DNA of 64,000 nt, taken from the IMG/VR virus record IMGVR_UViG_3300023371_000083, one strand, 5' to 3'. This stretch comes from a virus. Lineage: Duplodnaviria > Heunggongvirae > Uroviricota > Caudoviricetes. The translations under genes and the position numbers were made by a program. This document shows, in pieces, positions 42 through 40,915 of this stretch. The notes beneath the pieces are model-generated. The model was not told the DNA's origin, searched no databases, and was given only the letters and a program-made list of their open reading frames with translations. Positions within the stretch are counted from its first letter, which is position 1; each line of letters starts with the position of its first letter.

Positions 42-70
42 TTGACTAAATTTTTTATTATAAATATAAT
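42..70 (+). promoter_or_regulatory. sigma70-like promoter (TTGACT-17 nt-TATAAT) with upstream CTAAAAAATA motif
   Basis: Direct read: TTGACT at 42-47, TATAAT at 65-70, 17-nt spacer. Preceded by the A-tract motif shared with the other early promoters. Confidence 0.5.
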
Positions 71-117
71 AATGAAGAACAGTATTTTTTAGTTTAGGTA
101 TACGGAGAGGTGATCCT

Positions 118-1047
118 ATGTACTATAATGAATTGATAAAAAAGAAATATTTAGAAAATTCACAGGAAAATAACGCAAATTATGCAGATAAATTATTTTC
201 TTTTTATGCAAGAATAGAAGAAGAGTTCGGTAAAGATTTAGCTGTATTTTCCAAAGAAGAAATTATAGATACATATTCTAAAATTTCATCTTTAAGTACT
301 TTAAGGAGACACCAATCTGTTTTAAGAAATTATACATCTTTTTATTTATCTGAAACTCATAATCAGGAAAACCAGAATGAATATGATAATATATTGGACG
401 ATGAATTGGTACAGATAATCAAATCAAATGCAAATAATAGAATGTATATCTCTAAATGGCAGCTCATGGAAATTTTAGAAGATCTGCCAAACGCTGTAGA
501 TAAATTTCTTGTATTGGCACTATATGAAGGTATTAAAGGTGATAATTTTGAAGATATCATCATGATGAAAATGAGTGATATCAATGAAAGAAACAATACA
601 ATTAAACTTTATAGTGGTAACACTATTAAAGTTAGTAGCACATTGGTACTTTTAGCGCAAGAAGCTTACTCGCAGAAATACTATAAAGGGATGCAGTCTT
701 CATTTACTATCTCATCAAAACCAGTAACACTTGATAAGAATGAATATGTTTTTAGGGTTAGAGCAAATTCAAAACTTACAGATAATGATACAGAAAAGAA
801 ATCTGCAAGAGTATATCAGCGTTTGCTTGCAATTAAAAAATATTTGGGAAATAATGATTTTTCATTATCAAGGATCATGAAGAGTGGTTATGTATATGAA
901 TTAAAGAAAATAAAGAGTCAATTTCCGGAATGTGCATGGGAAGATATGTTAGAAAAACCAGGCGTATATGATTTAACAATCAGATTTGGTTTAAATGCGA
1001 AAAAATATTATAATACTATCTGGTTATTAAAAGAATATTTAGATTAA
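118..1047 (+). CDS. hypothetical protein (N-terminal part weakly resembles a phage-integrase SAM-like DNA-binding domain; no catalytic motifs seen)
   Basis: Intact 309-aa ORF downstream of a strong promoter with TAA stop. Similarity is by eye only. Confidence 0.45.
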   Translation: MYYNELIKKKYLENSQENNANYADKLFSFYARIEEEFGKDLAVFSKEEIIDTYSKISSLSTLRRHQSVLRNYTSFYLSETHNQENQNEYDNILDDELVQIIKSNANNRMYISKWQLMEILEDLPNAVDKFLVLALYEGIKGDNFEDIIMMKMSDINERNNTIKLYSGNTIKVSSTLVLLAQEAYSQKYYKGMQSSFTISSKPVTLDKNEYVFRVRANSKLTDNDTEKKSARVYQRLLAIKKYLGNNDFSLSRIMKSGYVYELKKIKSQFPECAWEDMLEKPGVYDLTIRFGLNAKKYYNTIWLLKEYLD

Positions 1048-1087
1048 TAATAGGTGTACCAGTAAAGGTACACCTTTTTATTTTCAC

Positions 1088-1235
1088 AGATTAAACTAAA
1101 AAATATTGTTGACAGATTTATACAAAAAGTTTATAATTAATTTAGACTAAAAAATCTTGTTAATTTGTTGTGAAAAAATAGTGTAAAATTTTCTAAAAAG
1201 ACTATTGCAAAGATTCCGGTAAATGTTATAATAAG
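1088..1235 (+). promoter_or_regulatory. three tandem promoter-like elements (TTGACA-17-TATAAT at 1109-1137; weaker extended -10 element near 1160-1189; TTGCAA-16-TATAAT at 1205-1232)
   Basis: Direct read of -35/-10 hexamers. Each is preceded by a variant of the CTAAAAA(A)TATTGTTGAC motif. Confidence 0.45.
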
Positions 1236-1250
1236 TGCGAAATAGAACAA

Positions 1251-1559
1251 GTGTTCGATAAGGGAGGGATGTTAATGAAAAAACATATGAAAGAAATGGT
1301 GAAAAACCTTCTTGAAGAATTTTCAGAAAATGGAATGTCGTTGATCATAAACGTATTTTCAGATTTAGTTAATTTCTCTTATAGTGGCGATATAGAGTTG
1401 ATTCAAGACTCTGAAGATATGCTTATGGTCAATACTGTAGAATCATGTTTAAGTTTGAATTTTACTGATAATATGACTATTGAAGAATATGAGACAGAAT
1501 ATTCAAAAGCTATTTTATTAAAAAATACATATTCTTCTATAGAAATTTCTGGGGTATAA
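1251..1559 (+). CDS. hypothetical acidic protein
   Basis: ORF with a GGGAGGG ribosome-binding site (RBS) upstream. Codon usage is consistent with neighbours. Confidence 0.4.
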   Translation: MFDKGGMLMKKHMKEMVKNLLEEFSENGMSLIINVFSDLVNFSYSGDIELIQDSEDMLMVNTVESCLSLNFTDNMTIEEYETEYSKAILLKNTYSSIEISGV

Positions 1560-1613
1560 TCCCCAATTTTTTTAAGAAATTCTAAAATAAAAAATATTGT
1601 TGGAGGTGATTGT

Positions 1614-2738
1614 ATGAAAAATTTTGATTATGCTGCCACGAATCCTAAAATAGACGATGAGATCATTGATATTATTTCTGAAGTATTAAAAACAAATAAT
1701 GGTAATCCATCTGCTGTTTATAAAATTGGCAGAAATGCAAAAGAGATTATGGAAAATGCGAGAAGAAATGTTGCGGATATATTCGGATGCCAGCCAGAGG
1801 AAATTATTTTTACATCAGGTGGATCTGAAGCAAACAATATGGCTATTAAGGGTGTTGTGTTTGCGTCTACAAACAAAAGAAAGCACATTATTACAACAAA
1901 AATGGAACATAAAGCTATTCTTGAAACATGTGAATTTCTTGAAAAACACGGTTTTGCAGAAGTTACATATCTCGAACCGGGCAATATGGAATATATTACT
2001 CCCTGCCAATTAGAAGATGCGATTACAGAAGATACAGTGCTGATTTCTATTATGAGTGTTAACAACGAAGTTGGTATTACAAATCCAATATATAGATTAT
2101 CAGAAGTTGCACACAAACACGGGATACTGTTTCACACAGATGCCGTACAATTTTCTCGTGTCGGTGTTCCTATAGTATGGAAATTAGGAGTAGATTTAAT
2201 GTCTATATCTGGTCATAAATTTGGAGCCCCAAAAGGTATTGGTGTTTTATATATAAAAACAGGAACACCTATTGAGCCATTAATTCATGGCGGCGGACAA
2301 GAGTTCGGTCTTAGGGCTGGCACAGAAAATATTGCTTATATTGTTGCGTTAGGTGAAGCAATAAAAAAATTACCCAAATATGATTTTGCAGAACAATTTA
2401 ACCAAACAATTCGTCTTCGCAGGAAATTAAAAGATGCGTTTAAAGATGATATTAAATTTGCCAGTGAAAATAGCGATATTGCTGGTATTTTAAATTTTGC
2501 GATCAAAGGTGTCCCGGCATCTGAATTACAGGCATTTCTTGATATGAATGATATCTGTACATCTATTGGATCTGCATGTAGTTCTGGCGACCCTAAAGCC
2601 TCTCATGTTTTAGAGGCATTAAACATTCCGGAAATAGAAATCCATAATTATATGAGAGTATCAATTTCTGAAACGACAACAGATGATGAGATTGAAGAAT
2701 TTATTTCGTTATTAAAATTTTACACATCTATGAGATAA
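1614..2738 (+). CDS. cysteine desulfurase (class V aminotransferase, NifS/IscS family)
   Basis: Motifs TSGGSEANNMAIKG and SGHKFGAPKGIGVLY (PLP-lysine SGHK), plus the C-terminal active-site Cys region SACSSG. RBS GGAGGTGA. Confidence 0.8.
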   Translation: MKNFDYAATNPKIDDEIIDIISEVLKTNNGNPSAVYKIGRNAKEIMENARRNVADIFGCQPEEIIFTSGGSEANNMAIKGVVFASTNKRKHIITTKMEHKAILETCEFLEKHGFAEVTYLEPGNMEYITPCQLEDAITEDTVLISIMSVNNEVGITNPIYRLSEVAHKHGILFHTDAVQFSRVGVPIVWKLGVDLMSISGHKFGAPKGIGVLYIKTGTPIEPLIHGGGQEFGLRAGTENIAYIVALGEAIKKLPKYDFAEQFNQTIRLRRKLKDAFKDDIKFASENSDIAGILNFAIKGVPASELQAFLDMNDICTSIGSACSSGDPKASHVLEALNIPEIEIHNYMRVSISETTTDDEIEEFISLLKFYTSMR

Positions 2739-2754
2739 CAAGGAGTATAGAACA

Positions 2755-3006
2755 ATGAAGAAAAAAGATATCGTAGCAATCAACAAAGCAAAACAGAAAA
2801 AATTAAGTGAAATGTCCACAAAAGCACTTGATGTAGTGACAGCGACCATTATGCAATTAACAGCTGTAAACGGAGAGATTGATGAAACAGTCAATGATAT
2901 TAATGCTACTGTTGACGACTTAACAAATACAAAAACTGAATTAACAAGTCAGAAATCTAAAAACGAAACAATCATTAGTAAGTTTAAAAATTTAATTGGT
3001 GAATAA
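2755..3006 (+). CDS. hypothetical coiled-coil protein
   Basis: ORF with RBS AAGGAG. Confidence 0.4.
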   Translation: MKKKDIVAINKAKQKKLSEMSTKALDVVTATIMQLTAVNGEIDETVNDINATVDDLTNTKTELTSQKSKNETIISKFKNLIGE

Positions 3007-3112
3007 GAGGGTGATATGAATGGCTGAAACATGTTATGTGGCAGTCGTTTGTATGGCTGTTATTGTTTCTATCACATTGGATTTATTGAAAAAGGTTATG
3101 AAGAGGTAAACA

Positions 3113-3394
3113 ATGAGGTACATAGAAAATATTGTAATCGGAACACCGGTCGCATCACCAGAGAGTATGTTTGCCATAGATGATGCCGACTGGAAAAATG
3201 TAGAAGAAGAAAAAACATATTTTACAGAAGACAGATTTTTACCCAAAATTCTTGTGGATCTTGGTATTTATCCTTCCATTAGCGAGATTAGAAGAAATAG
3301 AAAAGACTTAGTTGTAACACTAGATAATGTTTGCTTTATTGATAAATTAAAAGTGAGCAAAAAACGAACAGTTTACATTCTGGTAGGAAAGTGA
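3113..3394 (+). CDS. hypothetical protein
   Basis: ORF track only. Confidence 0.35.
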   Translation: MRYIENIVIGTPVASPESMFAIDDADWKNVEEEKTYFTEDRFLPKILVDLGIYPSISEIRRNRKDLVVTLDNVCFIDKLKVSKKRTVYILVGK

Positions 3395-3409
3395 AAAGAG
3401 GTATCATAG

Positions 3410-3640
3410 ATGAAATTTGTTAGACCTAATTGTGAGAAATGTGTACATTCAGAAGTTTGTGGCAAAAAAGTTGATGTTGATATTTTAAAAAATGATATGG
3501 AACAAATGAAATATTTTTCTAATAAAGAATATCTACAGAAGTTGTCAATTTTCAGCGTAAAAATTGAGTGTAGACATTATCTCGATGTCACAAAAGTTGC
3601 CACAGCTTTAACTTCTAAAGAAGGTGTTGCGAATGTCTGA
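3410..3640 (+). CDS. hypothetical protein
   Basis: ORF with RBS AAGAGGT. Confidence 0.35.
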   Translation: MKFVRPNCEKCVHSEVCGKKVDVDILKNDMEQMKYFSNKEYLQKLSIFSVKIECRHYLDVTKVATALTSKEGVANV

Positions 3641-3779
3641 GTTATGCAAAGAATGCTTCATTGATATTTGGCAACTTTCCGATGAAGAAATTAATCAAAT
3701 TGTAATGAGTGATGACATTTATTTGTGTGAAGGTTGTGGAGAAGTAAAAGAATATGTATTAGAAATGCGTGGTGATTAA
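3633..3779 (+). CDS. small CxxC...CxxC zinc-ribbon protein (48 aa; not in ORF track)
   Basis: ATG overlaps the previous stop (ATGTCTGA). The reading frame is clean up to a TAA that overlaps the next ATG. Confidence 0.3.
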   Translation: MSELCKECFIDIWQLSDEEINQIVMSDDIYLCEGCGEVKEYVLEMRGD

Positions 3780-4271
3780 ATGAAGGTTGTATTTTTAGAT
3801 GTTGATGGTGTTTTAAACTGTGGTGAATCAAAATCAAGATGTGGTTGTTTTATTGGTATTGACGATAGCAGGGTAAAGCTTTTAAAAGAAATTATAGAAA
3901 AGACTGATGCAAAAATTGTATTAGTGTCTACATGGAAATTTGGATGGGAACCCATTGATAAAGAGGCAATGGACAGAGGTGGTATATACCTTGACAAAAA
4001 AATGAAAAGACAAGGGTTAACAATTATAGATAAAACATACGACAGAGGATGGAATAGAGGTCAAGGTATCAATCAGTACCTCGAAAAACATCCAGGGATC
4101 ACCTCTTGGATTATTCTTGATGATGAAACTTTTGAATATGAAGAAGAGGGGGTAATCTCCCATCTTGTTAAAACAAGTTTTTATAATGATGGTTTACAAG
4201 AAACTCATGTAAAAGATGCTATCGCAAGGTTAAATGAAAGTGATGGCACAAAAATTGAAAAGGGAGCTTGA
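3780..4271 (+). CDS. HAD-superfamily hydrolase (DxDGVLN motif; possibly polynucleotide 3'-phosphatase-like)
   Basis: N-terminal FLDVDGVLN motif I, followed by a VSTW motif-II-like region. Confidence 0.5.
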   Translation: MKVVFLDVDGVLNCGESKSRCGCFIGIDDSRVKLLKEIIEKTDAKIVLVSTWKFGWEPIDKEAMDRGGIYLDKKMKRQGLTIIDKTYDRGWNRGQGINQYLEKHPGITSWIILDDETFEYEEEGVISHLVKTSFYNDGLQETHVKDAIARLNESDGTKIEKGA

Positions 4272-4528
4272 TAGATATGATAATTATTGAATTTATCACT
4301 AAATCTATTAAGATTGTGTGCTGGTGCATAGCTAGATTTATTGTATGGATTGTAACAGCAAGAGATTGTAGACACTGTAAATATGGCAAACTGGAATCTT
4401 GTTATGCAGATGATTATTATAAATGCAAAAAAGCAGATTCGGAAACAAATTCCATGTACGACTACACACAAAATGTTATGGACTGTAAAAATAGTATTCT
4501 GAGAAAAAATTTCGAAAGAAAAAATTGA
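4268..4528 (+). CDS. hypothetical Cys-rich protein
   Basis: ORF track; start overlaps the previous stop. Confidence 0.35.
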   Translation: MIDMIIIEFITKSIKIVCWCIARFIVWIVTARDCRHCKYGKLESCYADDYYKCKKADSETNSMYDYTQNVMDCKNSILRKNFERKN

Positions 4529-4566
4529 TATAACTCATAATTGCAATAACTGAGAGGAGGAATTAT

Positions 4567-4968
4567 ATGTTGACATTTCCGTTTTTCTTAATCGTTTGTA
4601 TGTTGTTTTTGCATGTGGTAGATGACTATTATCTTCAGGGTATTCTTGCAAGCATGAAGCAGCGTGATTGGTGGTTAAAAAATACACCGGAAGATAAACA
4701 ATGTCTTTATTGTAAAGATTATTTAATGGCATTAGGAATGCACAGTTTTAGTTGGACATTTATGATTATGTTACCATTAACTTTTTATTATCTGATCAAT
4801 GATGGCGTATGGTTTCCAATGCTATATGTAATCAACACTATTATCCATTTTATTGTTGATGATACAAAAGCAAATAAAAAACGCATTAATCTTATTGAAG
4901 ATCAGACAATACATATTGGTCAAATCTTATTAACTTGGATTTGGTGTTATGTGATGTATGGAATGTAA
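4567..4968 (+). CDS. hypothetical membrane protein
   Basis: Hydrophobic segments. RBS GAGGAGG. Confidence 0.4.
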   Translation: MLTFPFFLIVCMLFLHVVDDYYLQGILASMKQRDWWLKNTPEDKQCLYCKDYLMALGMHSFSWTFMIMLPLTFYYLINDGVWFPMLYVINTIIHFIVDDTKANKKRINLIEDQTIHIGQILLTWIWCYVMYGM

Positions 4969-4980
4969 GGAGATGGGCTG

Positions 4981-5268
4981 ATGAGTAAAATTAAACCTGT
5001 TGAGGGGTATATATACTTTACTGAAACACAGCTTGTTAAATTAGAACATGCAATTGGATTTGATTTTCAATTAGTTAAAAATAATAAATTTATTTCTACT
5101 AGAAATTATTTTTCTTGCGAAAGAGTGGACGAAGATTGGGAATACTTATCCGCTGTTGGATATGCAAAACGTATCAACAGAGGAAAAAGGTTCCCTATTT
5201 ATACAGTGACAAGAAAAGGGAAAAACTTTATACAGCGAGTGACAAATGTAAAAATTATTGATGCGTAA
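4981..5268 (+). CDS. hypothetical protein
   Basis: ORF track. Confidence 0.4.
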   Translation: MSKIKPVEGYIYFTETQLVKLEHAIGFDFQLVKNNKFISTRNYFSCERVDEDWEYLSAVGYAKRINRGKRFPIYTVTRKGKNFIQRVTNVKIIDA

Positions 5269-5282
5269 CTTGAGGTGTTTAT

Positions 5283-5705
5283 ATGGAAAAGTTTAGTTTT
5301 AAGCAAGAAATAACCGCAGAACAATTGTTGGACTCTATTAGATGTGTTCATTCAATGTCTACATGCAACATTAAAAAAGTGTTTGGTGTACATATTGATT
5401 TTTTAGATAAAGATAGTTACACAAAATATGTTGTAGATAATTTTTCCACAAAAGAAATTATAGAAAAGGTAACAAAATGGCAAGAAGATAGGGTTTTTAA
5501 TAAAGATGATATTGTGTTGAATTTCGCATCTCAAAAGCTCTATATAGTTACATATATCGATGATTATAAAATCAAATTGATTGGATCTGATGGTGATACT
5601 CAATCTCATGATGCAAAAACCTTTTCTAAATGGTTTACAAAAACAGGTAATAAATGTAAATTAGAAAAATTTTTAATGAAAACATTAAAGGAAGATGGTG
5701 AGTAA
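5283..5705 (+). CDS. hypothetical protein
   Basis: ORF track. Confidence 0.4.
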   Translation: MEKFSFKQEITAEQLLDSIRCVHSMSTCNIKKVFGVHIDFLDKDSYTKYVVDNFSTKEIIEKVTKWQEDRVFNKDDIVLNFASQKLYIVTYIDDYKIKLIGSDGDTQSHDAKTFSKWFTKTGNKCKLEKFLMKTLKEDGE

Positions 5706-5707
5706 AC

Positions 5708-6136
5708 ATGTATAAACAGATTATTATTGCCAGAAAAGATTTGAATATGTCGCCAGGAAAATTAGCAGCACAGGTTGCTCATGGTAGTATGGCGTTTTTA
5801 ACAAACAGAATCAAAGAGGTTGCAAGAAGAGATTATATGGATGGTTATTATCTTGCAACACTGGCTTTTAATGATGAATTGTTCGACAACTGGATTAATG
5901 CATCTTTCACCAAAACAGTATTAAAAGCAAAAAATAAAAATCAATTATTAAAAGCAAAAACAATGGCTGAAGAATTAGGCATGAAAGAAGGAATCGATTT
6001 TTTCTGTATTTATGATAATTGCCTAACAGAGCTTGAGCCAGAAGAAGATGGCAGGACGCTAACTGTTATCGGGTTTAAACCTATGGATATAGAAATCATT
6101 GATCAGATTGGTAAGAAATATCAGTTGTATATATAA
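5708..6136 (+). CDS. peptidyl-tRNA hydrolase, PTH2 family-like
   Basis: N-terminal IIARKDLNMSPGKLAAQVAHGS resembles the PTH2 signature (VVRxDLxMxxGKIAAQxxH). Length about 140 aa fits the family. Confidence 0.55.
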   Translation: MYKQIIIARKDLNMSPGKLAAQVAHGSMAFLTNRIKEVARRDYMDGYYLATLAFNDELFDNWINASFTKTVLKAKNKNQLLKAKTMAEELGMKEGIDFFCIYDNCLTELEPEEDGRTLTVIGFKPMDIEIIDQIGKKYQLYI

Positions 6137-6170
6137 GAAGTATTGGAACGGAATATTGGGGAGTGATTAA

Positions 6171-7385
6171 ATGTTTGAATTAACAGGAAAATATAATACG
6201 GCTAAAGTATTTACTAACAATATTGAGCCAGAAGCAATCTCTCAGATTATCGAACTCTGCAACCAGGAATTTGTAAAAGAAAGCAAAATAAGAATTATGC
6301 CAGATGTTCATGCTGGTGCTGGCTGTACTGTTGGCACCACAATGACAGTCAAAGATAAGGTTGTCCCTAATTTGGTTGGTGTAGATATAGGCTGTGGCAT
6401 GTTGACAACAGCGATTGCAGAAAAAGAAATTGACTTAGCAAAACTAGATAAGTTGATTCATGATAAGATTCCGGCAGGATTTAATATCAGAAAGAAAAAA
6501 CATGATTATTTACGATATACAGACCTCACAAATTTAAGATGTATCGACCATGTAGATATGACAAGAGCAGAGCTGAGTCTAGGAACGCTTGGGGGCGGTA
6601 ATCACTTTATTGAAGCAGATCGTGACGATGATGGAAATATCTATATTGTCATTCATTCTGGAAGCCGACGCCTTGGTCTTGAAGTTGCAAAGTATTATCA
6701 AGAAGAAGCGTATAGATACCTTAACGGCTCTACAAAAGAAGATGCTGAGAAATTAATTGCAAAACTGAAATCTGAAGGTAGACATAGAGAGATCGAATCC
6801 GAGTTGGCAAAATTAAAGAATGTTAAACGAACCAGCGTTCCAAAACACCTTGCTTATCTGGAAGGAAAGTTATTACAGGATTATATTTGGGATATGAACA
6901 TTGTTCAGAAATATGCAATGTGGAATCGCTGTGCAATGATGGATGAAATCATTGATGGCATGAATTTGACAGATATTGGTTCTTTTACAACTATTCACAA
7001 CTATATTGCACCTGAAGGCGGAGACAGAATTATCTTGCGTAAAGGCGCTGTGGCAGCGTATGAAGGTGAATGGTTATTAATTCCTATTAATATGAGAGAT
7101 GGTAGTTTGATTTGTGAAGGCAAAAGTAATCCAGAATGGAACTATTCTGCTCCTCATGGTGCTGGTCGTATTATGAGTAGAAGTCAAGCGAAATCTACTT
7201 TTAAAATGGATGATTACATTGCAGAAATGAAAGATGTATATACAACTTCTGTTTCTACAGACACTTTAGATGAATGTCCTATGGCATACAAGAATATGCA
7301 GGAAATCATTGATAATATCGGTGATACGGTAAATGTGTTGAAAGTAATTAAACCGATTTATAATTTCAAAGCTGGTGGAGAGTAA
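6171..7385 (+). CDS. rtcB: RtcB-family RNA ligase (3'-phosphate/5'-OH ligase)
   Basis: Motifs MPDVHAGAGCTVG, GGGNHFIE and APHGAGR match RtcB metal-binding and GMP-binding signatures. Confidence 0.85.
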   Translation: MFELTGKYNTAKVFTNNIEPEAISQIIELCNQEFVKESKIRIMPDVHAGAGCTVGTTMTVKDKVVPNLVGVDIGCGMLTTAIAEKEIDLAKLDKLIHDKIPAGFNIRKKKHDYLRYTDLTNLRCIDHVDMTRAELSLGTLGGGNHFIEADRDDDGNIYIVIHSGSRRLGLEVAKYYQEEAYRYLNGSTKEDAEKLIAKLKSEGRHREIESELAKLKNVKRTSVPKHLAYLEGKLLQDYIWDMNIVQKYAMWNRCAMMDEIIDGMNLTDIGSFTTIHNYIAPEGGDRIILRKGAVAAYEGEWLLIPINMRDGSLICEGKSNPEWNYSAPHGAGRIMSRSQAKSTFKMDDYIAEMKDVYTTSVSTDTLDECPMAYKNMQEIIDNIGDTVNVLKVIKPIYNFKAGGE

Positions 7386-7400
7386 AGGAAAGGTGTCTCA

Positions 7401-7754
7401 ATGTTTCGGAAAATATTTACAGGCAAAAACAGCAGCACAGTGGTAGTCGATGGCAAAACTTATGAAGTCGAAGGCAATAACATTATGATTCGCAACGGCA
7501 AAATTATTGTTGATGGTAAAGTAATCAATGATGAAAAAGTCGGTGTTTCTAAAGTGATTGTTACAGGAAATTGCGAAAGCATTAATTGCGATGGCTCTGT
7601 AGAAATAAACGGCGATTCTGGCAGGGTTAAATGTGGAGGTAGTTGTCATATTGGTGGAAATGTCACTGGTGGTGTTTTTGCTGGTGGATCTGTAACCTGT
7701 GGAAATATTGAAGGCGATGTTCTTTCCAGTGGAAGTGTAATAGCTAAAGGATGA
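7401..7754 (+). CDS. bactofilin-like / polymer-forming Gly-rich beta-helical protein
   Basis: Repetitive V/G-rich segments (GxVxGxV...), typical of a bactofilin domain. Confidence 0.4.
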   Translation: MFRKIFTGKNSSTVVVDGKTYEVEGNNIMIRNGKIIVDGKVINDEKVGVSKVIVTGNCESINCDGSVEINGDSGRVKCGGSCHIGGNVTGGVFAGGSVTCGNIEGDVLSSGSVIAKG

Positions 7755-7776
7755 TATAAATGAAAGAAGTGATATA

Positions 7777-8157
7777 ATGAAAAATTTTAGAGCATTTGCT
7801 GATGAAAATTATGATTATTATGAATTAACAGAAAACTTGGGTTACAACAATTCTGGATACGGCATTCATAAATATCTTCTTCCAAAAGGTGCAATTTTTG
7901 TACATGATAAGCACGATCAAGTACATGGTTCTATTGCAGATGGTTGTTTAACGCTTTGTTGGACTCCAGATGGTAATTGTTATGGATGTTTGGGAGGCGA
8001 AGGGTTACATTTACACGCAGCATTCAAGAGAACATCTATGTTTAAATTAGTAAAAAAAGGAAAAAGCGCAATGATTGCAGAGGTTGAACATGTAATCGAG
8101 GATTTAGAGAAAAAATTGGAAGAAGCAAAAGAGAAATTAAAAGAAATGAGGGAATAA
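7777..8157 (+). CDS. hypothetical protein with C-terminal coiled coil
   Basis: ORF track. Confidence 0.4.
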   Translation: MKNFRAFADENYDYYELTENLGYNNSGYGIHKYLLPKGAIFVHDKHDQVHGSIADGCLTLCWTPDGNCYGCLGGEGLHLHAAFKRTSMFKLVKKGKSAMIAEVEHVIEDLEKKLEEAKEKLKEMRE

Positions 8158-8158
8158 A

Positions 8159-9274
8159 ATGTCATACATTTATCAACGCCCTTTACATGGGAAAAGCATT
8201 GGAGTGGTTTTTGGCTCTTTTGCACCATTACATAAAGGTCATATTGATTTAATTATGAAGGCTAAAAAAGAAAATGATGGTGGATGTATCGTTATTGTAT
8301 GTGGTTATGATGGCGACAAAGGTGAACCTATCATTCCCCACAATAAAAGATACAGATATGTAAGAGAATATTTTAAAGACGATGAAATGGTTGCGGTGTT
8401 CCCTGTAAACGATACAAAAATTGGGGCAAATGCGTATCCAGATGGATGGGAAGTCTGGCTAAAAGAATTTTTTAATATCTGGAATGTTGCTGTGACACCG
8501 GTATCAAAAGAAGCAAAAAGAGTATGGTATGTCGGAGATCCTAATTATCATTTTGACCTTGAGAAACGTGGTGAATGTGCAATTCTCGTAAATAGAATGC
8601 TAAATCCAATTTCAGCAACAATGATTAGAGCTAATCCTTATAAATATTGGGATATGATGGCTTATACATTTCACGGAGCATTTAGTCACAACATTCTAAT
8701 TACTGGTACTGCAAGTGAAGGGAAAACAACATTAGTAAAAGATTTGGGTAAATATTTTAATACAACATATAGTCATGAGATGCCAAGAGATTATATGGAG
8801 GAAATGTGCGTTCATGATACCGAATTAGACGCAGTTGATTTTCTCTCTTTTCTTCAGGGGCAATACAATCTGAATCGTAAAATGATTAATTCCCCATTAA
8901 ATAAAGGCGTATTTTTTGCAGATACAGATGCTCTGGTAACGCAAATGTATGCAAAATATTATGCTATGGATGATACATGTAAAATGACAAAAGATGATTA
9001 TTATATGGTGGTCTCTCATGTCGCACATGCATTAACTAAACGCAGTAGATGGGACAAGATTTTTGTTTTAATTCCTCATGGTAATTTTGTGAATGATAAT
9101 TCACGCTATATGGAGCATAGCGGTATGAAAGAAAGGATGGAATTGTATAAAATTCTTGAATCTTTTCTTATTGCTCATGGGTTAATGGAAAAGGTAACAA
9201 TTTTAACAGGAGATTATTATGAGAACTATCTTGCAATTAAGGAATATACGGAAGGGGTGTTAAATCATGGGTAA
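8159..9274 (+). CDS. nadR: NadR-like bifunctional NMN adenylyltransferase / ribosylnicotinamide kinase
   Basis: N-terminal nucleotidyltransferase motif GSFAPLHKGH (HxGH), followed by the P-loop GTASEGKTT of the kinase domain. Confidence 0.65.
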   Translation: MSYIYQRPLHGKSIGVVFGSFAPLHKGHIDLIMKAKKENDGGCIVIVCGYDGDKGEPIIPHNKRYRYVREYFKDDEMVAVFPVNDTKIGANAYPDGWEVWLKEFFNIWNVAVTPVSKEAKRVWYVGDPNYHFDLEKRGECAILVNRMLNPISATMIRANPYKYWDMMAYTFHGAFSHNILITGTASEGKTTLVKDLGKYFNTTYSHEMPRDYMEEMCVHDTELDAVDFLSFLQGQYNLNRKMINSPLNKGVFFADTDALVTQMYAKYYAMDDTCKMTKDDYYMVVSHVAHALTKRSRWDKIFVLIPHGNFVNDNSRYMEHSGMKERMELYKILESFLIAHGLMEKVTILTGDYYENYLAIKEYTEGVLNHG

Positions 9275-9986
9275 AACAAAAGATATCTTAAAAAGTGAAT
9301 TTGTTAATGGTTATACAACCTTTGATAAATTATTTATGGGGATCATGGTATTAATGCAAATCATTGTTTTTGCAATTACTCCTGATTCGCCTATTGCGAT
9401 TATCGCCGGCATTAGTGGTGTGATTTCTGTTGTGCTTTGTGCTAAAGGAAAAATTTCCTTTTATTTTATTGGCTTCATTCAGACGATTACATATTTAATT
9501 CTGTCTTGGCAGAATCGATTTTATGGAGAAGTAATTGAAAATGTATTTTACCTTGTAACAATGGTGTGGGGAATTTTTATTTGGAAAAAACACTTGAATA
9601 CAGATGATAGTGGTTCTACACAGGTTGACGCTTTGAAATTTACACCAAATCAATGGATTGCATCTAGTGTATTAATTATTATTGCCACCATTGTTATGGG
9701 GTGGATGCTTACAAAGATTGGGAGCAATCAGGCATATACAGATGCAGCAACAAATGTAATTGCGATTTTTGCTCAATTATTAATGGTAAAAAGATATAGA
9801 GAGCAGTGGCTGTTCTGGATTGTAATTGATGTACTTTGCATTAAACTATGGGCTGTAGCAGGAAACTGGTCTATGGTAGCAATGTATATTGGATGGACGG
9901 CAAATTGTATTTATGGTTGGAAAAACTGGAGTGAATCTGTATCTTATAGAAACGATGAAAAACTAATGGTGATTAGGGAGGTATAA
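9267..9986 (+). CDS. pnuC: PnuC-like nicotinamide riboside transporter
   Basis: Multi-TM protein of 239 aa. Overlaps nadR by 8 nt, matching the classic nadR-pnuC pairing. Confidence 0.55.
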   Translation: MGKTKDILKSEFVNGYTTFDKLFMGIMVLMQIIVFAITPDSPIAIIAGISGVISVVLCAKGKISFYFIGFIQTITYLILSWQNRFYGEVIENVFYLVTMVWGIFIWKKHLNTDDSGSTQVDALKFTPNQWIASSVLIIIATIVMGWMLTKIGSNQAYTDAATNVIAIFAQLLMVKRYREQWLFWIVIDVLCIKLWAVAGNWSMVAMYIGWTANCIYGWKNWSESVSYRNDEKLMVIREV

Positions 9987-23279: not shown

Positions 23280-24008
23280 ATGGGAAAGGTTTAGATTCAT
23301 CCATTTACAACAAAAAAACCAATCACAATGATTGGATATATGGCTGGTGTGTGTTATGGAACAGATGTATCTGACGATGAAAAGAATTACAAAAGAGGTA
23401 TTGATTGTCTAAAATCGCAGCATGGCAGAACATGGGAATTTCCAACAGTATAGATGACGATTGAAGGGTACTCTGCAAGAGTTATGAGAGAAATTTATAC
23501 TCATATTGGTGGATCTCCTTCTCGTCTGCAAGCAAGTACAAGATATATTAATTACTCTGATTTTGACTATTTTACCCCTCCTTCTATTGAAGCTAATCCA
23601 GTAGCAAAAATTATTTATGATTCAACAATTATGAATAATATTATGGCTGGATTAAACGAACTAGAAGAAATGGGTATCCCTAAAGAAGATTCTGCTAATG
23701 CACTACCTCTTGGTATGGAATCTGTTATGGTCGGCAAATATAATTTTAGAACGCTGGCGGATATGTCACATCAAAGAAAATGTGTAAGAGCGTACCATGA
23801 ATTCAGAGGATGGTTTAATGATTTAGAAAATTCTTTATCTGAATATTCTGAAGAGTGGGCATATCTTGTAAAAGAACATTTTATGCCTAAATGTGAACAT
23901 CTGTTACATTGTCCAGAAAGATTTTCTTGTGGTAAATATCCTCCTAAAAATGTTGTTATGGAACTGATTGCACAGTGGAAAAAACAACAGGAGGCAAAAT
24001 CAGAATGA
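23280..24008 (+). CDS. thyX: FAD-dependent thymidylate synthase ThyX with in-frame TAGs (23292, 23451)
   Basis: AGVCYGTD...QHGRTWEFPTV[TAG]MTIEGYSAR...THIGGSPSRLQASTRY matches ThyX blocks. RBS AAAGGAAGAG. Confidence 0.65.
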
Positions 24009-25129: not shown

Positions 25130-27356
25130 AAGAAACGGTACAGAAATGTAGTTTGATTCAAATAAGATTAAAATAGCGATTTTAAAAGCATTTGTTGATG
25201 TAGATGGTGAAGAAAGCCAGTATGCAAAAGACAAGGCGAGAGATATTGCTAATTATATCGCATCTTTAAATAAAACAATGTCTGTAGAAGAAATCCAAAA
25301 TATCGTTGAAGAAAAACTGATGGCTAGCAATAGAAAAGATGTAGCCAGAGCATATGTTCGATACAGATAGATGAGAGATATGGCAAGATCCCAGTACGAT
25401 GGTTTTATGCAAGCCATTAGGGAAAAGGTTGAAGCTTCAAATGTTCAAAATCAAAACGCCAATGTAGATGAACATTCTTTTGGTGGCAGAACCGGCGAGG
25501 CAACAGACACAATGATGAAAAAGTATGCTCTTGACTATTGTGTGTCAAAAATGGCTAGAGACAACCATCTGAATAATATTATTTACATTCATGATCTGAA
25601 TTCTTATGCCGTAGGCATGCATAACTGCCTGTCAGTACCTTTAGATGATTTGCTGAAAAATGGGTTTAACACAAGACAGACTGATGTACGTCCTGCAAAT
25701 TCTGTTAATACAGCATTTCAGCTTGTAGCAGTGTTATTCCAGTTGCAATCACTAATGCAGTTTGGCGGCGTGTCCGCTACCCATATTGACCATACAATGG
25801 TTCCTTATGTGAGAAAGAGTTTTTATAAACATCTAATGGATGGTTTTAAGTATATTGAGGGCGTAGCAGAGCCTAGAAAATATATGTATCAAGAAAACGC
25901 TGATGAATTTTGGACTCAATACACTGATATTGATGACAAGGATTTAAAAGCAGCGCATCCTAAAGCATACCAATACGCAATGGATATGACGACAAAAGAG
26001 ACATATCAGGCAGTTGAAGGTATGTAGCATAACCTCAATACACTGCAGAGTAGATCTGGTAATCAGCTTCCATTTAGTTCTGTGAATTACGGCACGTGTA
26101 CTCTACCAGAAGGCAGAATGGTAACAAAAGCGTTGTTAGAAGTATCAATCAATGGTATCGGCAAACTACATAGAACGTCTGTGTTCCCTTGTGGTATTTT
26201 CCAGTGTATGAAAGGCGTAAATAGAAAACCTGGCGATCCTAACTACGATTTGTTCCAATTGGCATTAAAATCTACAGCACAGAGACTGTATCCCAATTAT
26301 GCCAATGTGGATTGGAGTAATAACGCAGGATACGATATTAATGACCCTAGAACATATTTTAGTACAATGGGTTGTCGTACAGCCAACCTGTTCGACATTA
26401 ATGGCTTAGGTCAGCTTAAAGATGGTAGAGGCAACATCTGTCCTGTAACAATCATTATGCCTACATTGGCTATGATGGCAAAAGAACTGTACGAAGACCA
26501 GACTTACGATACACATGCTAATATTGTAGATATTTTCTTATACATTCTCGACCAAAAAATTCATGAGGCAAAAGATATGCTTATTGAACGATTTGAGTGG
26601 ATTTGTAAACAGAATCCAAAATCTGCAAAATTCATGTATGAAAATAATCTAATGGCTGGTTATGTTCCAGAAGAAGGAATTAGAAGCGCTTTAAAACATG
26701 GCACCCTAGCTTTAGGTCAGTTAGGTCTTGCGGAAACACTGCAGATTCTAATTGGTTGTGACCATACAACAAAAGAAGGTATGGATTTGGCAAAACAGAT
26801 TGAGCAGTTATTCAAAGATAGATGTGCTGAGTTCAAACAAGAATATCAACTGAATTTTGGTGTTTATTATTCTCCAGCAGAAAATCTTTGTCATACAGCA
26901 ATGAGAAAATTCCAAGAACAATATGGCGTGATTGAAAAAGTATCTGATAAAGATTATTTTACAAACTCTATGCATATTCCTGTATGGCATAAAATGACAC
27001 CATTTGAAAAGATTGATTTAGAAGCGCAGTTAACAGGATACTCTAGTGCTGGATGTATTACATATGTAGAACTTGAATCTTCAGTAAAACATAACATCGA
27101 GGCACTTGAAACACTTGTTAATTATGCAATGGATCAGGATATTCCTTATTTTGCAATTAATGTTCCCAATGATACATGTTTAGATTGTGGTTATTGCGAT
27201 GAAATTAATGATGTTTGCCCCATGTGCGGAAGCAAAAGAATTCAGCGTTTACGTAGAGTAACTGGTTATTTAACAAATGATTACAAAACAGCATTTAATT
27301 ATGGCAAACAACAAGAAGTTGAAATGAGAGAAAAGCATAGTGGGGTATCCGTATGA
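25116..27356 (+). CDS. nrdD: anaerobic ribonucleoside-triphosphate reductase NrdD (class III) with three in-frame TAGs (25149, 25368, 26025)
   Basis: ATP-cone VIKRNGTEM[TAG]FDSNKIKI...AYVRYR[TAG]...; core ...EGM[TAG]HNLNTLQSRSGNQLPFSSVNYG; C-terminal Zn ribbon and glycyl-radical RVTGYL motif. TTG start follows RBS AGGAGG. Confidence 0.8.
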
Positions 27357-27898
27357 GAATTATAGATATTACAACATGCAGTGTTGCTGATGGTTTAGGG
27401 TTCCGTTTGGTAATTTGGTGTGCTGGATGTGAACATCATTGTGAAGGATGTCATAATCCTGAATCATGGGATTGTAACGCTGGACACAAACTAACAGATA
27501 AAGACCTTGATACAATATTTGATCAACTAGAATTTGATTATATTAAAGGAATCACATTTAGCGGAGGAGATCCTTTGCATCCACAAAATGTAGAGCAAGT
27601 TTATAGACTCTGCAGAGTGATTAAAGAAAATTATCCGGATAAAACAATTTGGATATATACAGGATATAAATTTGAGAACATTTATTACGAACCTGGTTGT
27701 TTTATGACTCAAGATTGTAATCCAGCAAGGGATCTTAGAAACGAAGTGCTGAAATATATCGATGTGCTTGTTGATGGCGAATTCGTTCACGACAGAAGAA
27801 ATGTAACAATTGCTTTTCGAGGTAGCGATAATCAAAGACTAATTGATGTTCCAAAATCATTAAAGGCGTGGAAAGCAGTTATTTATGAGCAGGAGTAA
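27353..27898 (+). CDS. nrdG: anaerobic RNR activating protein NrdG (radical SAM)
   Basis: Cys cluster CAGCEHHCEGCHN. Length and position immediately after nrdD fit NrdG. Confidence 0.75.
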   Translation: MRIIDITTCSVADGLGFRLVIWCAGCEHHCEGCHNPESWDCNAGHKLTDKDLDTIFDQLEFDYIKGITFSGGDPLHPQNVEQVYRLCRVIKENYPDKTIWIYTGYKFENIYYEPGCFMTQDCNPARDLRNEVLKYIDVLVDGEFVHDRRNVTIAFRGSDNQRLIDVPKSLKAWKAVIYEQE

Positions 27899-27929: not shown

Positions 27930-28547
27930 ATGGGAAAAGAATTGAGTTTAAGAAATTAGAATCTTGTTATCGGAGTGATGCTCCTTTGGGGTTTTATTGT
28001 AAATGTATTTACATGTGCATTTGGTGGAGAATATTTTGCTTCAATTAGTCCAGTGAAATTATTAATAGGGTATTTTATTACAGCCATTATTGGTATTTGT
28101 ATGAGCGCATTTTCAGAAAATCCGTTTGTAAGTTTCATTGGTTATAACTTGGTTGTATTACCTATCGGCGCTGTATTAAGTGTTACATTACAAGATGTTG
28201 CAAAACTAACAATCCTTATGGCGTTTGGTGCAACTGCGTGCATGACATGCTTAATGATGATAGCAGCAACATTGAAACCGCAATTGTTTTTATCAATGGG
28301 TAGAATTCTGTTTATGAGTTTGCTTTTTGTAATTATAATTGAGCTTCTAATGGTCGTGTTTTGCGGTGTATCTCCAACAATAATTGACTTTGTTGTGATT
28401 GCTTTGTTCTGTTTATATGTAGGATATGATTGGGCAAAGGCGCAAGAGATGCCAAAAACATTGGATAATGCGGTAGATAGTGTTGTTGGACTGTATTTGG
28501 ATATTGTAAATATTTTTATCAGACTCATTGATATTATGGAAGATTAA
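27930..28547 (+). CDS. BI-1/YccA-family (TMBIM) membrane protein with TAG at 27957
   Basis: Seven-TM-like hydrophobic profile. C-terminal GYDWAKAQEM...GLYLDIVNIFIRLI matches the Bax-inhibitor/YccA family. Confidence 0.5.
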
Positions 28548-31394: not shown

Positions 31395-31559
31395 ATGAAC
31401 CCGGTAGTTATTTTAATAGTTATATTAGTTGCTATTGTTATTTGGCTCTGTTTATCCAAAAAGTTTGTTTGGATTGGGGATAAATTATATAACATGTTTA
31501 GCGACACAAGAGATATTTTGAGCGAAGAGTTTGATAAAGAAAAGGAGAACAAAAAATGA
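31395..31559 (+). CDS. small single-TM protein
   Basis: RBS GGGAGGT + ATG; stop overlaps the next ATG. Confidence 0.3.
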   Translation: MNPVVILIVILVAIVIWLCLSKKFVWIGDKLYNMFSDTRDILSEEFDKEKENKK

Positions 31560-32467
31560 TGTATGATTACGAAGCGTATGAAAAAGAAAGAGAAGAAAAA
31601 CGAAAAAAAGTCAAAAAAGGTCTGATTGGTGGCGGTGTTGTTGCATTTGTTTTACTGATCGGTATTGGTTGTGCCGCTGCATGTATCGAAAAAATTCCAA
31701 ACGGCTATTGTGGTGTTCAGTACTCCATGAACGGTGGTATTAAAGATGAAGTTCTAACACAGGGTTGGCATTTCGTATCTCCTTTTGTGCATGTTAAAGA
31801 ATTTACAGTTGCCAATGAACAGCTGGTAATGTCTAAGGATGCGAGAGATGGCAGTGAATCTGATGATAGCTTTAATGTGGCAACAGCAGACGACGCAAGC
31901 ATTGCAATCAGCTTCAGAATGGAATATGCATTTATTCAGGATGAACTTCCTGATACATTCAAGAGATACCGTGGCATGAGTGGTGAAGATATTGTTAATA
32001 ACCGTGTAAGAGGTATTCTGAAATCTAAAATTTCTGAAGTAACAACTAACTATACAATGATGGATATTTACTCCGGCAATCGTAGTGAAATCAACAGAAA
32101 AATTCTGAATCATCTGAACGAAGAATTTAAAGATACATATGGTATTACAGTAATCAATGCAGATATTATTGATGTACATCCAGATGCACAGCTACAGCAG
32201 ACAATTGATAATCGTGTAAAAGCACTGCAGCAGAAACAAGAGGCTCAGGCTAAACAAGAAACAGCAAAAGTAGAAGCCGAAACAGAACTGATCAAAGCTA
32301 AGAATGCGGCTGATATTGAAATCACAAAAGCAAAGGCTGAAGCAGAAGCCAACAGAGTTATCTCTGAAAGTATTACACAGGGTCTGATTGATATGAAAAA
32401 TGCAGAAGCAAGAATGCAGCATGGCTGGGTAACAATTAAGGGCGCAAATACTGTTGTAACAAAATAA
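31556..32467 (+). CDS. SPFH/band-7 (stomatin/HflK/C-like) membrane protein with C-terminal coiled coil
   Basis: N-terminal TM, then a TQGWHFVSPF...SPFH-like core and an EA/K-rich coiled coil. Confidence 0.6.
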   Translation: MMYDYEAYEKEREEKRKKVKKGLIGGGVVAFVLLIGIGCAAACIEKIPNGYCGVQYSMNGGIKDEVLTQGWHFVSPFVHVKEFTVANEQLVMSKDARDGSESDDSFNVATADDASIAISFRMEYAFIQDELPDTFKRYRGMSGEDIVNNRVRGILKSKISEVTTNYTMMDIYSGNRSEINRKILNHLNEEFKDTYGITVINADIIDVHPDAQLQQTIDNRVKALQQKQEAQAKQETAKVEAETELIKAKNAADIEITKAKAEAEANRVISESITQGLIDMKNAEARMQHGWVTIKGANTVVTK

Positions 32468-32798: not shown

Positions 32799-33713
32799 AT
32801 GCAATTTTGTAGCAAAGAAGATATTAAAGATTATATTGAAACAAGAAAAGCAGATATCAAAAAATCCGTTCAAAAAAATACCAGCATGGGATTTGATGTT
32901 CCCACACTGGCGATTATTCAAGTCGGTAGCAATCCTGCATCTAACAAATATGTAAATGGCAAAATTAAGGATTGCGAAGAAGTTGGAATGAAAGCTGTAT
33001 TACATAAATTTAATGAAGACATTGAACCTGTAGATTTTGGAACAGAGATTATTAAAATCATGCATGATGAAATGATTCATGGTGTAATTATCCAGAAACC
33101 ACTGCCCGAAAAATTAGAAAAATATTTTGATAAGTTTGTAAAAATGATTCCAAAGAAAAAGGATGTCGATGGATTTAGAAAAGATACTGAGTTCGATCCT
33201 TGTACTCCTAAAGGAGTGGTGGATTATATTGAAAGCAGACAGGGTAAAGACTGGCTGACAGGTAAAGATGTTGTCATTATCAATCGTACAGAATTGGTTG
33301 GTAGGCCACTTGCAAAAATGATGTTGGATAGAAATGCGACAGTTACTGTTTGTCATAGTAAAACAGAGCGTCTGCGGAATCATTGCCAGTATGCAGACAT
33401 TGTTGTGAGTGCTATTGGCAAACCTAAAATTTTAATTAGAGACTATGTTAAGCATGACAGTGTATGTTTTGATGTAGGAATTAGTTTTGATGAAAACGGA
33501 AAAATGTGTGGCGATTTTGACAGAGATAACGTAATGAAAATAACAGATTATTGCACACCTGTTCCTGGCGGCGTCGGTTTACTGACAAGAATTGCTCTTG
33601 TAGAAAATGTATTAAAAGCATATGAAAATCAGAAGTATAGAGCAAGTATGATTCCTAATGCAGAAAAGGATGAAAACAATGTGGGGAATTACAAGTCTTA
33701 TGAGAGAAAATAA
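32799..33713 (+). CDS. folD: bifunctional 5,10-methylene-THF dehydrogenase/cyclohydrolase FolD
   Basis: [18 protein letters not shown]...IIQKPLP...[14 protein letters not shown]...VPGGVGLLT are FolD signature blocks. Confidence 0.75.
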
Positions 33714-35103: not shown

Positions 35104-35130
35104 ACCTTGATATATCAACGATATAAGAAG
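35090..35130. other. candidate attP/att core (perfect palindrome TTGATATATCAA overlapping the recombinase stop)
   Basis: Position lies between the miaB fragment and the serine recombinase; palindrome read directly. Confidence 0.25.
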
Positions 35131-39443: not shown

Positions 39444-40265
39444 TTATTGTTTTCTAAGCTTATCTCGAATCTTTTTTTCAGAATCATATATGTTAATATA
39501 ATGTGTGCCAAGAATTTTAGGGATACGATTTATTTGAGAAATCAGTTCTTCTAATTCAGCGATATCCAGACTACATTTATGATCTGTACCTTCCATAGTT
39601 TTGTCTAATGTAATATGTCTTTCAATAATATCTGCACCTTTAATAACAGAAATCAGAGTAGGCAGCGTATCAATTTCATGACCGCTATATCCAATTGCTA
39701 AAGTGGGGTACATGTTTTTTAATCTTGTAATAACATTTAAATCCAACTCATCGTCAGCACATGGGTAAGTACTATTACAATGTAAAATACCAAGTAAATT
39801 ATCTAAGTTATATATTGCATTTAAAACTTCTGGTTCAGTGCTCATCCCATCAGAAATAATAACAGGAATACCCCAATCATTAATGGCATGGATTAATTCC
39901 ATGTCTGTAATACATGCACTTGGAATCTTGATAAAAGGTATATCATAACTATATTGCTTCATAAATTCAACACTATTTACATCCCATACACTAACAGTCC
40001 ACTTAATACCAATTTTTTGACAAAACTGATTAATAATATCGTATTCTGTTTTACCAAATTCAATTGACTTTTTATATTCAAGATAAGTCATTTCTTCACC
40101 TTTCCAGATGCGTTTAACATTTTTTTGATGTTCAGGAACACAAAAGTCTGGATCACGCTTCTGAAACTTTACAACATCAACACCACATCGTTTTGCTTCT
40201 TGAATTAACTGTAGTGCTGTGTATAATTCTCCGTTATGATTAATTCCAATTTCTCCAATAAACAT
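39444..40265 (-). CDS. NeuB-family nonulosonic-acid (Neu5Ac/KDN-9-phosphate-type) synthase, lacking C-terminal SAF domain
   Basis: FIGEIGINHNGEL...GVDVVKFQ is the NeuB/SpsE signature. Confidence 0.65.
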   Translation of the reverse strand: MFIGEIGINHNGELYTALQLIQEAKRCGVDVVKFQKRDPDFCVPEHQKNVKRIWKGEEMTYLEYKKSIEFGKTEYDIINQFCQKIGIKWTVSVWDVNSVEFMKQYSYDIPFIKIPSACITDMELIHAINDWGIPVIISDGMSTEPEVLNAIYNLDNLLGILHCNSTYPCADDELDLNVITRLKNMYPTLAIGYSGHEIDTLPTLISVIKGADIIERHITLDKTMEGTDHKCSLDIAELEELISQINRIPKILGTHYINIYDSEKKIRDKLRKQ

Positions 40266-40267
40266 AT

Positions 40268-40915
40268 TTAAAACTCCTCTTTAATCCTTACAATATCGTC
40301 TAGTTCAATTGTAGAACTTTCAATAATGACTAAATCTGTAATGGCTTTTACTTGATGAATTGTGCCAGCCGGAATTCTGATAGTGTCACCAATATTTATA
40401 CGAAACTCTTTTCCGTCTACTTTGGCAATCCCAACACCTTCAACAACATGCCATGTCTCATGTTTTTTAACATGATATTGTAGAGATATATTTAATCCTG
40501 CATCAATATGCAATCTTTTCATTGCATAGTTTTTAGTGATGTCCAGTAAATACTCTTTACCCCAACGCTTGTTGATTACAGTTAAACTTTCGGCATCATC
40601 TTTAGATATCAAATAATTTGCATTACAACCCTTATCATCTATGTAAACATCTGCAGCGGGTTTGCCAAATCTCAGTTCATGCTATTTTACACCCCAATCA
40701 GATAATTGTTGCGTTGTAAGATCGAACCAATCAATTCCAGTTTCTGTGCCACGAGCAGTATAATAAACCACTTTATTTCCGTTATCATACAAAGTGTTTG
40801 CCATTTGTATCATATCCATATATGGTTTTGCGTCCGCATAATTTTCTTCTTGACTACAGATAGTTCCATCAATATCAAAAATGTACTTTAGAGGTTTCGT
40901 ATTTGAATTTTGCAT
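40268..40915 (-). CDS. HAD-IIIA phosphatase (KdsC/nonulosonate-9-P phosphatase-like) fused to a C-terminal cupin domain; in-frame TAG at 40682
   Basis: FDIDGTI (motif I) ... YYTAR ... [TAG]HELRFGKPAADVYIDDK (motifs III/IV) span the TAG, followed by a small cupin beta-barrel. RBS AAGGAGG before M19. Confidence 0.6.

Follow-up and report, generated by a model that had tools for sequence, protein, structure and literature searches.

The NadR–PnuC Gene Pair

The stretch of DNA analyzed here, 64,000 nucleotides from IMG/VR virus record IMGVR_UViG_3300023371_000083 (hereafter the window), carries on its plus strand a nadR-like gene followed directly by pnuC, a pair predicted to import nicotinamide riboside (NR) and to convert it to NAD+. 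A first-pass annotation had placed overlapping nadR and pnuC genes at 8159–9986, and the open reading frames (ORFs) were found exactly at these coordinates (Table 1). Specifically, the two genes share 8 nt (ATGGGTAA, 9267–9274), such that the pnuC start at 9267 falls within the last nadR codons and the nadR stop codon occupies 9272–9274 (the letters across the junction read GGAAGGGGTGTTAAATCATGGGTAA). A Shine-Dalgarno sequence (GGAAGGGG, 9250–9257) is located inside the end of nadR, 9 nt 5′ of the pnuC ATG. The 8-nt overlap suggests that nadR and pnuC are translationally coupled, and an overlapping layout of the two genes is likewise present in two of the related loci considered below (L012 and L005).

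Table 1. Positions of the two genes, their junction and the NadR domains in the window.
Feature	Positions	Strand	Basis
nadR-like gene, 371 aa, ATG start	8159..9274	+	six-frame ORF list
pnuC gene, 239 aa, ATG start	9267..9986	+	six-frame ORF list
Coupling junction, Shine-Dalgarno GGAAGGGG then ATGGGTAA	9250..9274	+	read from sequence
NMN adenylyltransferase domain, ~residues 12–160	8192..8638	+	motif search and residue mapping
Ribosylnicotinamide kinase (P-loop kinase) domain, ~residues 177–353	8687..9217	+	residue numbers of L. lactis NadR (PMC7221760) transferred by mapping

The pair is embedded in a long, tightly packed plus-strand block of early and replication genes. A gap of only 1 nt separates it from each neighbor (TAA-A-ATG upstream and TAA-C-ATG downstream), and at both of these outer junctions a Shine-Dalgarno sequence lies inside the preceding gene. 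Promoter-like matches around the pair occurred at chance level (49 vs 52 expected) and no terminators were found flanking it, which led us to reject the architecture of a moron equipped with a separate promoter and terminator. An Rfam search of the window returned no match, and hence no NAD riboswitch such as the NAD+-II/pnuC motif; with no intergenic space before either nadR or pnuC, regulation by a riboswitch or another RNA element was rejected as well. The 1-nt outer junctions, together with the absence of excess promoters, flanking terminators and Rfam matches, argue for probable co-transcription of nadR–pnuC with the early and replication genes rather than for expression as an independent moron.

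The NadR-like Protein

The domains anticipated by the first-pass annotation, namely CTP_transf_like and AAA_28 for one protein and NMN_transporter for the other, were recovered as predicted. In the NadR-like protein, Pfam recognizes CTP_transf_like, a cytidylyltransferase-like domain of the HIGH nucleotidyltransferase type, at residues 17–158 (E = 2e-9) and the P-loop kinase domain AAA_28 at residues 179–353 (E = 7e-20), and the protein as a whole belongs to phrog_3462 (E = 1.5e-69). The first of these corresponds to the nicotinamide mononucleotide (NMN) adenylyltransferase (NMNAT) domain of NadR, in which the HxGH motif reads H25-K-G-H28, the ISxTxxR motif reads I151-S-A-T-M-I-R157, and the nicotinamide-recognition region is formed by Y93-P-D-G-W97. 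The second corresponds to the ribosylnicotinamide kinase (RNK) domain, with Walker A at residues 183–191 (GTASEGKTT), Walker B at residues 250–256 (GVFFADT, including D255), and a lid at residues 308–324. In an alignment of 38 homologues, H25, G27, H28, Y93, G96, W97, I151, T154, and R157 show no variation, and the universal catalytic signature positions, including those of Walker A, Walker B, and the lid, are invariant.

Structural comparison points in the same direction. Matches of the NadR-like protein in the Protein Data Bank (PDB) include L. lactis NadR (6GYE; E = 1e-60, 36% identity), the phage protein Bas30_86 (9X6F; E = 5e-24), and the NadR enzymes of E. coli (8X7F) and H. influenzae (1LW7). 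An AlphaFold2 (AF2) model of the protein reached a pLDDT of 89 and a pTM of 0.85, with disorder confined to residues 1–3 and to lid residues 313–319, the low predicted confidence of the latter segment being as expected for a mobile lid loop. Over its full length this model superimposes on NadR structures only, with no other full-length match; its TM scores are 0.83–0.88 to L. lactis NadR (6GYF/6GZO) and 0.75–0.82 to 1LW7/8X7F. Like Bas30_86, the predicted protein lacks the N-terminal helix-turn-helix (HTH) regulator domain, because an NMNAT domain starting from residue 12 leaves no room for it. In summary, the 371-residue ORF reads as an HTH-less NadR that is predicted to be bifunctional, acting as both NMN adenylyltransferase and ribosylnicotinamide kinase.

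The PnuC Protein

The 239-residue product of the downstream gene matches NMN_transporter (PF04973) with an E value of 3e-45 and 154.7 bits, against a cutoff of 27.3, and scores 149.9 bits with the PnuC profile TIGR01528, against a cutoff of 42.45; it is a member of phrog_1880. With respect to the structure of N. mucosa PnuC (4QTN), residues 9–226 of the window protein align to residues 8–233 of 244 (E = 1e-36). Strongly hydrophobic segments were identified at residues 22–38, 43–79, 89–105, 131–147, and 182–198 by a simple hydropathy scan that does not resolve every helix. Judged from these sequence features, the protein is a predicted Pnu-family transporter with a seven-transmembrane (TM) core and an extra N-terminal TM helix. 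The ligand motif of the family, WxxW(x)3D/N in TM6 (PMC5749112), is present as W181-LF-W184-IVI-D188, which is the Asp variant. NR, rather than thiamine or riboflavin, is the probable substrate, as suggested by the score with TIGR01528 and by an obligate linkage with an NR kinase.

Conservation and Origin of the Pair

Support for a functional connection between the two genes was also obtained from related loci that were fetched by NadR similarity alone. These 16 loci, which take in Lak megaphages, IMG/VR contigs, metagenome contigs, a T5-like BASEL phage, a Lactobacillus herellevirus, and a Bacillus siphovirus, span NadR identities of 25–100%, and in every one of them (16 of 16) a same-strand PnuC homologue adjoins NadR. 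A similar association is apparent in 50,697 GenBank phage records, 438 of which contain NadR-like and 744 PnuC-like genes, and where the counts by host genus are nearly equal for the two families (NadR/PnuC: Salmonella 171/172, Bacillus 24/24, Lactobacillus 18/18, Prevotella 15/15, Erwinia 14/14).

For both genes, dN/dS values of 0.12–0.23 against relatives of 63–75% identity indicate purifying selection. Their GC content, GC3, and codon usage are indistinguishable from those of the rest of the phage, and recent horizontal acquisition was rejected on these compositional grounds. Metagenome contigs that carry the identical pair number at least 24. The identical NadR protein recurs in 31 blocks of the metagenome collection, and four loci (L001–L004) on contigs of up to 107 kb share the gene neighborhood of the window and contain the 1,828-nt pair with zero nucleotide differences. 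Beyond these, the NadR clade is mostly metagenomic (59–75% identity), and the members examined sit on phage-like contigs. The only match to NadR among cellular genomes was on a 26-kb contig binned into a Eubacteriales metagenome-assembled genome (MAG; JAZTXP010000070.1, L005), which may be chromosomal or may belong to another phage. Within positions 65–8713 of that contig, overlapping nadR and pnuC genes with 54% and 63% identity to those of the window are flanked by genes for an HD-domain phosphohydrolase and a GHMP kinase.

The conservation does not extend to the surroundings of the pair. None of its seven neighbors in the window has a match in any related locus, and no homology connects the small genes that immediately precede nadR in L010, L012, and the window, so that a conserved third component was rejected. 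Since the neighbors are not conserved across related loci, the predicted module would consist of exactly two genes.

The Phage and Its Likely Host

The window is phage DNA with a replication module and tail genes. It encodes a Sak annealing protein, a DnaB helicase, a DnaG-type primase, a PD-(D/E)XK nuclease, a PolIII-alpha-like DNA polymerase, and a DNA ligase that is ATP-dependent. Nucleotide and cofactor genes are also present (ThyX, NrdD/NrdG, FolD, dUTPase, and a guanylate-kinase-like ORF), as are genes for a C39-like peptidase, XkdX, a tail fiber, and a tape measure protein. The GC content is ~33% throughout. At the DNA level, the only match among the GenBank phage records was a 180-nt segment in RtcB, and the existence of a close DNA relative in that set was rejected. 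The DNA polymerase is closest to those of Clostridioides phage pCD1602_4 and of Thomasclavelia phages (45–46% identity), followed by large Bacillus siphoviruses. These nearest polymerases, and the Eubacteriales contig as the only cellular match to NadR, indicate that the host is most likely a low-GC Bacillota bacterium of the gut. Assigning the host from cellular genomes by themselves was rejected, as this one MAG contig (54% identity) was all that they yielded.

The window also contains a large serine recombinase (35115–36698, minus strand), positioned exactly at a switch of GC skew and coding strand, and a MrpR-like tyrosine recombinase at its left end (118–1047, plus strand). Both enzymes, along with the occurrence of the nearest polymerase in pCD1602_4, suggest that the ~107-kb phage may be temperate or plasmid-like.

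Proposed Role in NAD+ Reconstitution

A two-gene system with this composition has been described as NARP3, which consists of Bas30_86 (NadR-like) and Bas30_87 (PnuC-like) of the T5-like Escherichia phage TrudiRoth (Yan et al., Sci Adv August 2026, PMC13464706) and for which structures are available (PDB 9X6F/9X6H; PMC13464706). Bas30_86/87 import NR, convert it via NMN to NAD+, and provide an NR-dependent rescue of the phage from the Sir2-HerA and DSR1 systems that needs both genes (PMC13464706). On the basis of homology, intact motifs, fold, and conserved coupling, we infer that the window copy shares these activities and this biological role, and we consider it probable that the pair forms a NARP3-type module of two translationally coupled genes that reconstitutes NAD+ and counters NADase defenses. 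With respect to the earlier proposals, that of a complete NR-to-NAD route in a phage holds at the level of predicted gene identities, fold, motifs, and phage context. The further suggestion that NAD+ would be restored in the face of NAD-depleting defense stands as a demonstrated activity for the homologous Bas30_86/87 (PMC13464706), and for the window phage it is a probable one by virtue of that homology.

In terms of mechanism, the pair would be expressed within the same-strand early and replication block of the phage, and PnuC would insert into the host membrane and allow external NR to diffuse into the cell. The RNK domain of NadR would then phosphorylate NR to NMN, trapping it in the cell, and the NMNAT domain would use ATP to turn NMN into NAD+. 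With a precursor that is imported rather than drawn from the host NAD pool, NAD+ could be refilled even while NADases of the SIR2, TIR, or DSR type destroy it; more generally, the pair would keep NAD+ high in an NAD-limited host.

Several observations weigh against this assignment. Identity to the NARP3 proteins is only ~30%, both for NadR (over 277 aligned residues) and for PnuC. The chain in 9X6F was verified to be Bas30_86, as each of the 20 residues that the NARP3 paper names fits it at an offset of +6; of these 20, six are identical in the window NadR (F11, Y86, G89, W90, I141, and D275) and two are conservatively replaced (E80D and Y93W), while K10, S37, P84, F110, S112, D115, K163–K168, and E230 of Bas30_86 differ. 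The residues of the docking-derived RNK “site 1” (K163, R167, K168, and E230) are accordingly not conserved. The NadR-like protein also falls below the NCBIfam equivalog cutoffs (215 vs 341 bits for TIGR01526 and 116 vs 201 bits for NF005988), although these profiles were trained on canonical proteobacterial NadR and the match still spans 321 of 325 profile positions. Furthermore, the phage bears a serine integrase, which leaves room for a benefit during lysogeny, and the D/N position of the PnuC ligand motif is occupied by Asp, as in the thiamine transporter PnuT. Asn is found at this position in N. mucosa PnuC, in the T5-like PnuC Bas28_0091, and in the PnuC of Bacillus phage Nate. The Asp variant is nonetheless common to the whole clade of the window PnuC and to Lactobacillus phage Semele, in which pnuC overlaps nadR; it is therefore normal among NadR-linked PnuC proteins and provides no strong argument against NR as the substrate.

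Among alternatives, the one that survives best, although we regard it as unlikely, is that the pair forms a general auxiliary metabolic module that supplies more NAD+ for replication in NAD-auxotrophic or NAD-limited hosts, independent of any NAD-depleting defense. Among gut and lactic Bacillota, many are auxotrophic for NAD or limited in it, the closest characterized NadR is that of L. lactis, and the phage is rich in nucleotide and cofactor genes (NrdDG, ThyX, FolD, dUTPase, and the guanylate-kinase-like ORF). Surveys of jumbo phages have likewise read pnuC/nadR clusters as a means of independent NAD synthesis (PMC11662467). This role is compatible with counter-defense, the biochemistry being identical in the two cases. 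However, the sole experimental test of such a pair gave a defense-specific benefit with little metabolic cost or effect otherwise, and the phage enzymes encoded in the window show no obvious need for NAD+, the ligase being ATP-dependent.

A further set of readings, to which we assign rather low probability, would make the pair less a counter-defense device than a means of scavenging vitamin B3 that is also of use to a lysogen or an NAD-auxotrophic host, would give the Asp188 PnuC a broadened or altered range of substrates, or, more loosely, would place the pair in a counter-defense island with the RtcB and PTH2 genes described below. A lysogenic-conversion pair in the strict sense, that is, a moron expressed from a prophage or plasmid state for the salvage of vitamin B3 (NR) by the bacterial host, appears very improbable. 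The two recombinases, the placement of the nearest polymerase in pCD1602_4, and the 54%-identical pair on the contig binned into the Eubacteriales MAG would fit such a role, but the pair lacks a separate promoter and terminator, translational coupling ties it to unrelated phage genes at either end, its composition shows complete amelioration toward that of the phage, and the characterized homologues come from virulent T5-like phages. Hardly credible, finally, is import of another Pnu-family substrate such as thiamine, with NadR using only host-derived NMN or NR: Asp188 is shared with PnuT and specificity within the family is not reliably readable from sequence, but TIGR01528 (150 bits vs a cutoff of 42) and the full-length 4QTN alignment point to PnuC, the Asp variant in Semele and in every clade member always adjoins NadR, and the coupling with an NR kinase would be functionally meaningful for NR only.

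Other Genes in the Window

The plus-strand block that holds the pair also encodes a PTH2 peptidyl-tRNA hydrolase (5708–6136) and an RtcB RNA ligase (6171–7385), located two genes 5′ of nadR. It is plausible that tRNA repair of the RtcB type counters tRNA-cleaving defenses, and the stretch at 5708–7385 may represent a cluster of counter-defense genes with different targets. Further toward the left end, the early region of the plus strand also contains an Aminotran_5 gene (class-V aminotransferase or cysteine-desulfurase-like, 1614–2738) and a gene for a HAD_SAK_2 protein (3780–4271).

On the plus strand, NrdD, the anaerobic ribonucleotide reductase, is split into an ORF at 25371–26027, which covers profile positions 2–141, and an ORF at 26082–27356, which holds the C-terminal part with the glycyl-radical domain; the two halves lie 55 nt apart and are followed by the NrdG activase (27353–27898), and no intron was detected in the split gene by Rfam. 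The ThyX-like ORF at 23454–24008, also on the plus strand, covers only positions 62–181 of the 191 in its profile, the N-terminal part being missing from the ORF; an interruption of the gene or a wrongly called start may account for this. In addition, the replication-region block of the plus strand carries unusual predicted auxiliary genes for a Bax1-inhibitor-like membrane protein (27975–28547), a Band_7/SPFH protein (31556–32467), and a bifunctional FolD (methylene-THF dehydrogenase/cyclohydrolase, 32799–33713).

The late region on the minus strand (39444–42367) encodes NeuB (39444–40265), a cupin or mannose-6-P-isomerase-like protein (40268–40612), a CTP_transf_3 cytidylyltransferase (40875–41543), and a SPASM-domain protein (41540–42367). 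This group looks like a cluster for the biosynthesis of nonulosonic (sialic-like) acid, which may be used in the glycan modification of virion or host surfaces.

Comparison with Known Systems

The first-pass annotation had assumed that the NAD pathways known from phages use other enzyme sets. This premise is outdated, as is evident from papers of 2022, 2024, and 2026 and from the PHROG database, in which both families of the pair carry the annotation of auxiliary metabolic genes. A paper from 2022 discussed phage NadR as a means of countering NADase effectors (PMC9503650). In 2024, Osterman et al. noted that phage nadR usually occurs in an operon with pnuC and perhaps represents a further (third) NAD+ reconstitution pathway, and a survey of the same year described pnuC/nadR clusters in gut jumbo phages (PMC11662467); NARP3 itself was published in 2026. 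The interpretation of the window pair is thus right but already known, and what is specific here is a divergent lineage of the NARP3-type module.

With respect to the individual proteins, the best match of the window NadR in both sequence and structure is the L. lactis enzyme, for which NR kinase and NMNAT activities have been demonstrated biochemically (Stetsenko et al. 2020, PMC7221760; PDB 6GYE/6GYF/6GZO). This enzyme is also without a functional HTH regulator domain, and its Walker A, Walker B, and lid segments align with those of the window NadR. It is a cellular, chromosomally encoded enzyme, whereas the window NadR falls in a separate, mostly metagenomic clade on phage-like contigs. N. 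mucosa PnuC differs from the window PnuC in overall sequence (35% identity) and in the Asn that is replaced by Asp188. The full-length alignment of the two transporters includes a non-conserved N-terminal helix that mediates trimerization, and the GKIS, YGE, REQW, and WxxW motifs are conserved.

The arrangement of the two genes has parallels in other phages. The two families adjoin in Lak megaphages, in Lactobacillus Herelleviridae (Semele and LP65), in Bacillus phages Nate and Thrax, in Enterococcus phages, and in Serratia phage BF and Vibrio phage ICP1, the best GenBank phage match to the window pair being Lak-C1 (43% and 45% identity). None of these is close to the window at the DNA level, and in Semele and Nate the two genes stand in reverse order. 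In Semele (L015, 1229–3637), the overlapping pnuC and nadR genes are directly followed by a Nudix hydrolase, a three-gene variant unlike the arrangement in the window and in Bas30.

NARP1 (Adps and Namat) and NARP2 (Nampt and Nmnat) achieve the same end result, in that the phage rebuilds NAD+ during infection. They differ in their substrates, which are ADPR and nicotinamide or nicotinamide and PRPP, and neither includes a transporter. Genes of NARP1 or NARP2, or for Nampt, NadE, Nudix, macro, or Sir2 proteins, were absent from the annotated ORFs of the window, and other NAD pathways were rejected on this basis.

The comparison with NARP3 is the most direct. A phage genome, an adjacent same-strand cassette of two genes, and an HTH-less enzyme with NMNAT and RNK domains are characteristics of that system that the window pair shares, nadR lies upstream of pnuC in both, and the predicted chemistry (import of NR and its conversion via NMN to NAD+) is alike. 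In contrast, several Bas30_86 residues that were tested by mutation are not conserved in the window NadR, and the 8-nt overlap of the window genes corresponds to a 1-nt gap in the T5-like relative Bas28. The window PnuC keeps the extra N-terminal TM helix and has Asp, not Asn, in WxxWxxxD/N. The phages differ as well: that of the window is uncultured, ~107 kb in size, integrase-bearing, and apparently a phage of gut Bacillota, whereas NARP3 comes from a virulent, T5-like enterobacterial phage. The NARP3 operon was described as largely restricted to phages of Enterobacteriaceae (PMC13464706). The window pair reveals no new mechanism and opens no new question; together with existing GenBank annotations, it places the NARP3-type module well beyond the Enterobacteriaceae phages. 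Specifically, the module extends to gut phages of low-GC bacteria that form an abundant, uncultured clade, and the NadR of this clade is nearer to the Lactococcus type than to Bas30_86. The known distribution of the module is thereby modestly widened, and a divergent sequence becomes available for comparative or engineering work.

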